Positions 61,438 to 62,460 of a DNA stretch of 64,000 nt are shown here, piece by piece. Every line of letters begins with the position of its first letter. The stretch's first letter is position 1. A program made the position numbers and the translations under genes. Source of the DNA: Candidatus Helarchaeota archaeon (GTDB lineage Archaea > Asgardarchaeota > Lokiarchaeia > Helarchaeales > RDOG01); the NCBI GenBank assembly GCA_019058315.1, contig JAHPZH010000001.1:725069-789068 (forward strand), read 5' to 3'. The notes below the pieces were generated by a model. That model was not told where the DNA came from. It saw nothing but the letters and a program-made list of their open reading frames with translations, and made no database searches.

Positions 61438-61797
61438 ATGAAGATAAATTTCACAAATTCTGCAAATAAATTCATTAATGAAACATTAGAGAAAAACAAA
61501 GAATCCTTAGACGATGTAGCACTAGCAATTTATACAAGAAGATCTATTGGATGAGGTGGAGTGAAGATATCAGTAAATATAGGTCTAATAAGAGCTCCAA
61601 TGGAAGAGATCAAAGACGAGTTCCAGGTGATTGATCAATATCGAAATGGAAATAATATAGAATTGCCCATTTTAATTGATCAAAAATCCAAAGATCTATT
61701 ATCTTATCATGATAAAATTATGGTCGAAGCTATTGGCTGGGGCTACTTTAAAAAATTGGCAATTCGTAATACTCCCGTTAGCTATGGATCTTGTTAA
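61438..61797 (+). CDS. HesB-like selenoprotein (119 aa, putative Sec at codon 39, TGA 61552-61554)
   Basis: SD-like GTGAGGT at 61426-61432, ATG 61438; MKINFTNSANKFINETL...LAIYTRRSIG-U-GGVKI continues in frame into the listed 61561 ORF; terminal Cys; downstream SECIS-like hairpin. Confidence 0.85.
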
Positions 61798-61806
61798 AAA
61801 ATTTTT

Positions 61807-61857
61807 AATCTGATGAATCTCTCTTATAAATTTTAGAAGAGAGAGGAAGAACAGTTT
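61807..61857 (+). promoter_or_regulatory. Putative eukaryote-like SECIS element in the 3' UTR
   Basis: ATGAA (61813-61817), stem TCTCTCTT, loop ATAAATTTTAG containing AAA, stem AAGAGAGA, GGAA (61845-61848); lower helix aa.ctg/cag.tt. Confidence 0.8.
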
Positions 61858-61911
61858 GCGACTGTAAAAAAAATCAAAATCTCAATTTAAGAGAGTAATA
61901 GTCATTTTAAA

Positions 61912-62460
61912 TTAATTAATTATATTAAAACCTTTTTCAATAGCCTTTATATTTAGGTCTTTATACTTTTCTGAAACGGTATCAGAAATAGATCTTATAA
62001 TTGCATCCTTTGAGACTATATTTGTAACTTTAATTAAAGCTCCAAGCATAATCATATTTGCTACTTTTTCATTTTCTAATTCTTTCGCAATTTTACTTGC
62101 TGGAATTTTAAAAACATTTTTTCTATCATCATCAAATTGGATGAGATCAGAATTTATAAAGATAAAACCATCTTTTTTAGTATTTGGATAATAAAAATCA
62201 AATGCTTCTTGTGAGATTGCCACTAATATATCCGCTTTATCTATAACTGGATATGAAATCATATCGGATTTAGAAATGATTACATCGCTTCTAACTTTAG
62301 TGCCTCTTTGTTCAGCTCCATAGGATTGAGTCTGAATTGCATTTTTTTTATCATAGATGGCAGCTTTCCCTAGTATCACGCTGACTAATATTACACCCAT
62401 GCCACCTAAACCACAAAACCGTATACTTGTTTCACTTTCTTCGTTTTTTCCAGAATGCAT
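61912..62460 (-). CDS. 2-oxoacid:ferredoxin oxidoreductase gamma subunit
   Basis: GLGGMGV, QSYGAEQRG, ANMIMLGA. Confidence 0.92.
   Translation of the reverse strand: MHSGKNEESETSIRFCGLGGMGVILVSVILGKAAIYDKKNAIQTQSYGAEQRGTKVRSDVIISKSDMISYPVIDKADILVAISQEAFDFYYPNTKKDGFIFINSDLIQFDDDRKNVFKIPASKIAKELENEKVANMIMLGALIKVTNIVSKDAIIRSISDTVSEKYKDLNIKAIEKGFNIIN

Follow-up and report, generated by a model that had tools for sequence, protein, structure and literature searches.

An open reading frame in the genome of a Candidatus Helarchaeota archaeon is interrupted by a UGA, and a small hairpin follows directly after the final stop codon of the gene. In this study, we asked whether this hairpin is a SECIS element of the type reported for Lokiarchaeota and whether it would allow the upstream UGA to be read as selenocysteine (Sec). 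In this genome TGA is an ordinary stop (374 of the 2436 long open frames end in it), therefore a Sec reading needs local recoding. All positions refer to the window, that is, the whole stretch of 64,000 nucleotides that was analysed, and the features discussed here are collected in Table 1.

Table 1. Positions of the gene, of the elements of the two hairpins and of the downstream oligo-T run in the window.
Feature	Positions	Strand	Basis or remark
Predicted IscA/HesB-fold selenoprotein gene P0001, 119 codons	61438-61797	+	translation with TGA=U
Presumed Sec codon TGA, codon 39, motif G-U-G-G	61552-61554	+	SECIS core about 260 nt downstream
Stop TAA of the P0001 gene	61795-61797	+	direct reading
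C-stem, 5' strand UCU	61809-61811	+	pairs with 61848-61850; MFE fold of the longer context
Predicted kink-turn bulge G-A-U, 3 nt	61812-61814	+	its A-U opens AUGA
G-A of the putative tandem sheared G.A/A.G pairs, then A61817	61815-61817	+	opposite A61847 and G61846; A61817 opposite G61845
Upper (NC) helix, 5' arm UCUCUCUU	61818-61825	+	sequence, fold and covariation
Apical loop AUAAAUUUUAG, 11 nt	61826-61836	+	lokiSECIS loop features
Upper (NC) helix, 3' arm AAGAGAGA	61837-61844	+	sequence, fold and covariation
G, then GA of the 3' side of the SECIS core	61845-61847	+	G61845, GA 61846-61847; direct reading
C-stem, 3' strand AGA	61848-61850	+	fold and covariation
Mini-hairpin ACAGUU-UGC-GACUGU (hairpin 2)	61851-61865	+	fold; no spacer after the C-stem
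A8 on the + strand, T8 on the - strand	61866-61873	-	sequence and list of open reading frames

The interrupted gene and the selenocysteine machinery of its host

The frame of the gene (P0001) is opened by an ATG at 61438 and holds exactly one TGA. Pfam Fe-S_biosyn matched the translated product below threshold (E 0.0047), the NCBIfam model TIGR01911 gave no match to it at E<=1, and a search of PDB sequences with the protein-family profile returned nothing meaningful, so that a comparison of folds was needed. In the AlphaFold model of the product (pLDDT 87.7), eight of the nine top PDB fold matches were IscA, SufA or close relatives (best E 1.9e-4). Thus, the product is confidently predicted to have an IscA/SufA fold. 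The HesB-like selenoprotein described by TIGR01911, which occurs in Methanococcales and bacteria, resembles P0001 in the IscA/HesB fold and in the placement of Sec at the first conserved Cys position; however, its motif is UxGP (PMC13188914) and that of P0001 is G-U-G-G, and the two differ in their type of SECIS.

Coding constraint is present on both sides of the TGA. Contigs from four metagenome runs were aligned to the locus, and strain-level contigs differ from the P0001 coding sequence at 13 positions, nine of them third codon positions, and these differences lie on both sides of the TGA, which is itself unchanged in three other metagenome runs. In the stretch 61798-61865, which follows the stop codon, contigs from other sediment runs revealed no strain differences. 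A single-protein search of 400 Asgard genomes recovered seven homologs that all have one, and only one, in-frame TGA, and a profile search of 400 Asgard genomes gave 80 matches in 59 genomes, 72 with a TGA inside and eight with none; closed genomes are among those that carry TGA-bearing members of the family, and in the closed genomes G134, G137 and G142 the family is present with 2-3 copies per genome. The TGA column is invariant in ten aligned family members and stays at one column across homologs that are 20-34% identical to P0001. One database homolog, P0003, has a Cys at this column, and this Cys and the U of P0001 form a classic Sec/Cys pair. Behind the gene of this Cys homolog (L030:117-475, motif G-C-C-G) the 3' hairpin is kept with the core UUGA in place of AUGA, and from its sequence the locus looks like a recent switch from Sec to Cys with a decaying or still tolerated SECIS. 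On short AT-rich contigs, TGA was read as W in the public gene calls (P0002, P0004-P0010, P0012-P0014, P0016 and P0018), therefore databases hold Trp at the position of Sec.

The host genome holds a complete Sec machinery. The gene for tRNA-Sec is found on contig C5 (C5:127141-127232) and is adjoined by SepSecS (482 bits), which in turn adjoins aSelB. The latter was located by GTP_EFTU plus aSelB_III (aSelB_III 1.3e-22) and matches the structure of SelB from M. maripaludis (PDB 4ac9) at 9e-112. A PSTK-like gene is present as well, and so is a SelD gene that itself contains an in-frame TGA. The genes for aSelB, SepSecS and tRNA-Sec form a compact cluster of neighbours, all on one strand (C5:124342-127232). 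The Pfam families eEFSec_4th and euk_SelB_III had no match in the genome, and the controls likewise gave none. In the 3' UTR of selD (C11:696600-696731, - strand), AUGA lies 20 nt past the stop, and a helix GCGGC/GCCGC encloses a hairpin GUGUCU-GCA-AGACAU. This region did not fit the Asgard type I model discussed below, and a kink-turn pairing could not be made out in it; the SECIS of selD is reported to be of a different form, type II.

Anatomy of the hairpin and its relation to known SECIS elements

A sequence-only reading of this locus had described AUGAA 15 nt past the stop, followed by a perfect 8-bp stem, a loop with AAA and the letters GGAA, as a eukaryote-type SECIS. This description was confirmed letter by letter, and the span 61807-61857 holds the whole element. 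AUGA occupies 61813-61816, 15 nt beyond the UAA, the next letter is A61817, and 61818-61825 and 61837-61844 form eight perfect Watson-Crick pairs. The loop AUAAAUUUUAG has A in four of its first five letters and ends on AG. The core AUGAN...NGAN with tandem G.A pairs likewise stands, with AUGA and the GA at 61846-61847 as its two sides; the sheared geometry of these pairs we infer from what is known of kink-turns and of eukaryotic SECIS elements. The statement that Lokiarchaeota carry eukaryote-like SECIS elements agrees with the accessible text of two papers (Mariotti et al. 2016, PMC4989117; Huang, Xiao and Zhang 2024, PMC11227280).

According to the accessible text of PMC4989117, lokiSECIS elements consist of a 9-bp stem that is preceded directly by AUGA, followed by GA and capped by an apical loop of 11 nt, and they lie near the end of the coding sequence. 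The first five letters of the loop favour A, and its last letter is an ultraconserved G that is usually preceded by A. It was also reported there that the SECIS elements of Loki escaped every SECIS tool, whether archaeal, bacterial or eukaryotic. The present element shows all seven of the published features: AUGA precedes a stem of nine positions, the 11-nt loop starts A-rich and ends on AG, GA follows, and the hairpin begins a few nt past the stop of a selenoprotein gene; eukaryotic SECIS tools do not detect it either. It also differs from the published lokiSECIS. Its first stem position is a non-canonical A61817.G61845, where most other elements of the host genome have a standard pair, and it serves an IscA/HesB-fold family that is unlisted in the accessible text of PMC4989117 and PMC11227280. 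The Asgard type I model, as given in the accessible text of PMC11227280, has a core GA_[G/A]A, a stem of 7-15 bp with at most two mismatches, a loop of 8-20 nt and a folding energy below -5 kcal/mol. The present element, with its GA_GA core, 8-9 stem positions, 11-nt loop and -10.1 kcal/mol, lies within all of these bounds. The sequence-only reading had found the upper stem shorter than in eukaryotes and had suggested a lineage-specific variant. This suggestion has to be given up: nine stem positions and an 11-nt loop are the published shape of lokiSECIS, and since all of its features recur here (as far as the accessible text of PMC4989117 defines them), the short stem is the standard Loki form.

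Like the eukaryotic SECIS of form 1 (RF00031), the element lies in the 3' UTR, has a kink-turn core of AUGA...GA with tandem G.A pairs and opens its apical loop with unpaired adenines. In contrast to eukaryotic SECIS elements, the region of the present element is not matched by RF00031: an Rfam scan of it at E<=10 gave no match to SECIS_1, for which the gathering threshold is 35 bits. A search of the whole genome with SECIS_1 gave no match, and the controls likewise gave none. The SECIS of Methanococcales and Methanopyrus (eaSECIS) also lies in the 3' UTR near the stop of archaeal selenoprotein genes and is presumably served by the same aSelB family. However, the present element lacks the asymmetric bulge GAA_A and the GC-only upper stem of eaSECIS. 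Its GAA (61815-17) is followed by an 8-bp stem made of A, U, G and C, and the letter after the 3' arm is G and not A as in eaSECIS.

At the level of sequence, all features of a canonical kink-turn are present, namely the UCU/AGA C-stem, the G-A-U bulge, GA/GA and the NC helix. The bulge takes its 3-nt geometry from the combination of the C-stem and the G.A pairs. Judged by its letters, the hairpin is a simple kink-turn of textbook form, with 3 nt in its bulge. It shares the C-stem, the 3-nt bulge and the G.A/A.G pairs with the canonical archaeal kink-turns, such as the L7Ae-bound ones of box C/D sRNAs and Kt-7 of 23S rRNA, and the latter has an A.G pair at the third position just as the present element does. 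In contrast to both, it lies in the 3' UTR of an mRNA, behind genes with an in-frame TGA, and has no box D. That such a kink-turn binds L7Ae for some other purpose, for example as a box C/D-like sRNA or as an element of translational control, appears extremely unlikely. CUGAUGA does resemble box C (RUGAUGA), the fold is that of a canonical kink-turn, and weak matches to snoRNAs of Rfam were obtained (E 0.7-5.6); however, neither a box D (CUGA) on the 3' side nor C'/D' boxes are present, the Rfam C/D match reaches 14 bits as compared to a gathering score of 40, and the genomic distribution of the element is tied to selenoprotein genes.

The folding energy of -10.1 kcal/mol for 51 nt corresponds to z = -0.8 against shuffled sequences. 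Because this energy is unremarkable and Rfam SECIS_1 gave no match, the case for a SECIS rests on comparative evidence. Across the elements, all eight pairs of the upper helix covary and 95% of the cells are paired, a result that is partly circular because the scan demanded pairing there. The columns of the C-stem, by comparison, were outside all selection criteria used to find the elements. In 15 elements its two closing pairs, each of which occurs as four pair types, were paired in 90% of cases; shuffles gave 44%. Among the model-aligned elements they were formed in 15/15 and 15/15 cases, and in an independent set of elements in 29/29 and 26/29. AUGA is invariant among the 15 aligned elements, and the GA of the 3' side, or AA in some relatives, is kept.

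Two other pairings for the base of the hairpin were considered and rejected. A lower helix CUG(61810-12)/CAG(61852-54) is contradicted by an ortholog in which G61812 is changed to A without compensation; moreover, CAG is part of the conserved mini-hairpin, and it is the UCU/AGA columns that covary instead. The change of G61812 to A, seen in ortholog L028, is as expected for the kink-turn, because the L1 position of the bulge is unpaired. A three-way junction closed by U5 (61802-06) and A8 (61866-73) was ruled out because the U-run is missing in orthologs. Oligo-T is a known termination signal in archaea. The T5 run at 61802-61806, which lies between the stop and the hairpin and is not conserved in two close orthologs, could in principle be an early transcription terminator. 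The T8 on the opposite strand probably terminates the convergent gene (61912-62460, - strand) before its transcript reaches the SECIS, as judged by analogy with archaeal termination.

Recurrence of the element behind genes with an in-frame TGA

A strict descriptor (ATGA-N, 8 bp, an 11-nt loop with at least three A in the first five positions and a final G, then N-GA) matched four times in the 5.8-Mb genome and not once in each of ten first-order Markov genomes. All four matches lie at most 15 nt past the end of an open frame with an in-frame TGA. The genes are P0001, hdrA, an IscA-like paralog and a small UxxC membrane protein (UPLC motif); hdrA has two Sec codons, and its UGA stop lies inside the AUGA core of its element. 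Relaxed scans added elements behind vhuD (Pfam FlpD, 3.9e-58), a DsbA-like UPWC gene (4.6e-27), a third IscA-like paralog and a gene with the motif C-U-U. Thus, the element is tied exclusively to genes with an in-frame TGA.

Several of these genes deserve description in their own right. The membrane protein (L024:174-386, - strand, contig C10) is tiny, has the motif H-x-U-P-L-C, a second in-frame UGA and no Pfam family, and ends on UGAUGA; a perfect lokiSECIS follows its gene (C10:42115-42165, - strand). The gene with two adjacent UGA codons (L025:152-571, - strand, contig C2) encodes a 140-residue protein with the motif G-C-U-U, again of no Pfam family, and its stop codon supplies the UGA of the AUGA core (SECIS at C2:355609-355659, - strand). 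The IscA-like paralogs on contigs C5 (L021:86-496, + strand) and C2 (L022:155-475, - strand) have one in-frame UGA each, at the same alignment column, and their own lokiSECIS 12-13 nt past the stop. In several members of the IscA-like family (L005, L041, L042 and L044 in G139-G142), the UGA stop of the gene itself forms the 5' strand of the C-stem (UGA-N-AUGA), so that the stop codon lies inside the SECIS.

We also built a covariance model (R1) from 13 other lokiSECIS elements, with the present one left out; R1 is our own model and not that of Mariotti 2016. It recognised the present element at 41.0 bits (E 6e-5 per genome), as the only match within the 64-kb window and the only non-training match with E<0.1 in the whole genome. 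The non-training matches ranked after it start at E 0.14 and fall within ordinary coding sequence. In the same class, 51 of the 61 sampled genomes contain R1 matches, with 1-7 per genome, which is the size expected for selenoproteomes.

The element is also kept behind homologous genes. In six of the first seven homologs, an AUGA...GA/AA hairpin with an R1 match (E<0.003) lies directly past the stop. Of 23 further homolog loci, 14 have an R1 match at this level immediately 3' of the gene; among the other nine, two have weak matches (E 0.049 and 0.3) and seven have no match at the 3' end of the gene. In one close ortholog the coding sequence is 85% identical (306/360), and the 45-nt core of the SECIS is identical in 45/45 positions; at the rate of the coding sequence (0.85^45), this would be expected about 7 times in 10,000. 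The second ortholog, L028, is 77% identical in the coding sequence and 42/45 in the core, where the only differences are two letters in the middle of the loop and the change of G61812 to A. Thus, the SECIS core is conserved above the level of the coding sequence. Ortholog L003 (genome G128) has no recognisable AUGA/GA core. At L003:1690-1790 there is instead an 11-bp hairpin with the loop UAAAAACCUCAG, and a helix UUCGGA/UCCGAA encloses it together with a second small hairpin; judged by its sequence, this structure may be a SECIS variant that lacks the kink-turn.

The sequence-based checks that the sequence-only reading had named for its hairpin thus came out in its favour: a covariance-model scan recovers the element with the element itself left out of training, the AUGA-stem-GA motif stands behind vhuD, hdrA and other genes of the genome with an in-frame TGA, and the element is kept behind orthologous and paralogous genes of other Asgard genomes. 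The comparative evidence supports its interpretation of the hairpin as a SECIS, and recoding of the upstream TGA would follow from that interpretation.

A more ordinary reading would be that of a generic 3'-end structure, a stabilising or terminating hairpin behind a TGA that is a real stop or the lesion of a pseudogene. The short convergent intergenic setting and the unremarkable folding energy would suit such a hairpin, but it leaves unexplained why AUGA and GA do not vary, why the A-rich loop is fixed at 11 nt and why the element is placed exclusively behind genes with an in-frame TGA. The lack of a T-run after the hairpin on the + strand and the TGA column conserved across homologs of 20-34% identity, with coding constraint on both sides, also speak against this reading. 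We regard this alternative as very unlikely. Chance likewise fails to explain why the core is invariant and the loop fixed, why the element is restricted to genes with an in-frame TGA, and why it is conserved above the level of the coding sequence. Therefore, the sequence comparisons make us highly confident that the hairpin works as a lokiSECIS (Asgard type I, eSECIS-like), carried by the mRNA of an IscA/HesB-fold selenoprotein in its 3' UTR, and the UGA in this IscA-like gene is most likely read as selenocysteine owing to the hairpin.

An abutting mini-hairpin and a model of the signal

The mini-hairpin that abuts the C-stem (hairpin 2) is, from its sequence, probably part of the signal. A mini-hairpin, counted when it had at least 4 bp and a loop of 3-8 nt, was found at offset 0-3 after the C-stem, and mostly at offset 0, in 22 of 26 elements. 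In shuffled tails the count was 7.5 +/- 2.2 with a maximum of 15, and 38% of random genomic 30-mers contain such a hairpin. Independent model matches from Lokiarchaeia had it in 28 of 29 cases as compared to 12.3 +/- 2.6 after shuffling; many elements of this second set are probably orthologs of one gene, and the counts overstate independence because kin are not independent. In ortholog L028, a compensatory change from U-A to G-C is seen in hairpin 2. The stems of hairpin 2 are unrelated between genes, and its loops usually contain WGC or UGY. Such mini-hairpins, of 4-6 bp, begin without a spacer after the C-stem in most of the Lokiarchaeia SECIS elements examined, here in the window and 3' of the SECIS at the loci L020-L026, L002-L008 and L072-L101.

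It is tempting to speculate that the SECIS consists of two modules, the kink-turn hairpin and the mini-hairpin with its GC loop, and that the hairpin first flagged is necessary but not the whole signal. Hairpin 2 would then stack on the C-stem of 2-3 bp and substitute for helix I of eukaryotic elements, or offer a second site of protein contact. The conservation of a hairpin whose stems change from gene to gene speaks for this proposal; however, four of the 26 elements have no hairpin of at least 4 bp, and hairpin 2 might just as well serve the 3' end or the stability of the transcript and only travel with the SECIS. We put the proposal forward tentatively, at slightly less than an even chance. 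The fuller claim, a two-module signal that here serves an IscA-fold family omitted from the published Asgard lists, is possible, with the balance tipped a little against it. A C-stem with a 3-nt bulge and an abutting mini-hairpin are not described in the main texts of PMC4989117 and PMC11227280, as far as these are accessible.

The signal would work as follows. The 3' UTR of the mRNA most likely folds into the kink-turn hairpin, with UCU/AGA, the G-A-U bulge, the tandem G.A/A.G pairs, the A.G pair, the 8-bp helix and the 11-nt A-rich loop, and the short C-stem would be extended by stacking on hairpin 2. This structure would recruit aSelB with Sec-tRNA(Sec), either directly or via a putative kink-turn-binding protein. 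Some 260 nt upstream, codon 39 (UGA) would then be read as selenocysteine rather than as a stop, and the UAA of the gene would end translation. That the transcript runs through the hairpin, that a protein binds it and that Sec is inserted is proposed here by analogy with the eukaryotic and methanogen systems. SBP2 is reported to be absent from Asgard archaea in the accessible text of PMC4989117 and PMC11227280. If the hairpin is a simple kink-turn, as its sequence suggests, L7Ae or L30e would therefore be concrete candidates for the archaeal SECIS-binding factor.

A SECIS of Loki type is in itself no surprise in this genome, and the type is already published. The gene family that it serves and the abutting mini-hairpin may be new. 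The Asgard selenoprotein surveys up to 2026 give seven families, none of which is HesB- or IscA-like in their accessible text, and an IscA/HesB-fold family would extend the published Asgard selenoproteome. For the gene itself, the element provides independent support that the UGA-split frame is a real selenoprotein gene, of a kind that gene-calling programs split into two or, with TGA=W, mistranslate. In summary, the comparative data refine the picture of the Asgard SECIS to a canonical kink-turn whose bulge has 3 nt, adjoined by a conserved mini-hairpin, and this refined model would provide testable candidates for how SECIS elements are recognised in archaea that have no SBP2, a question that the field calls open.
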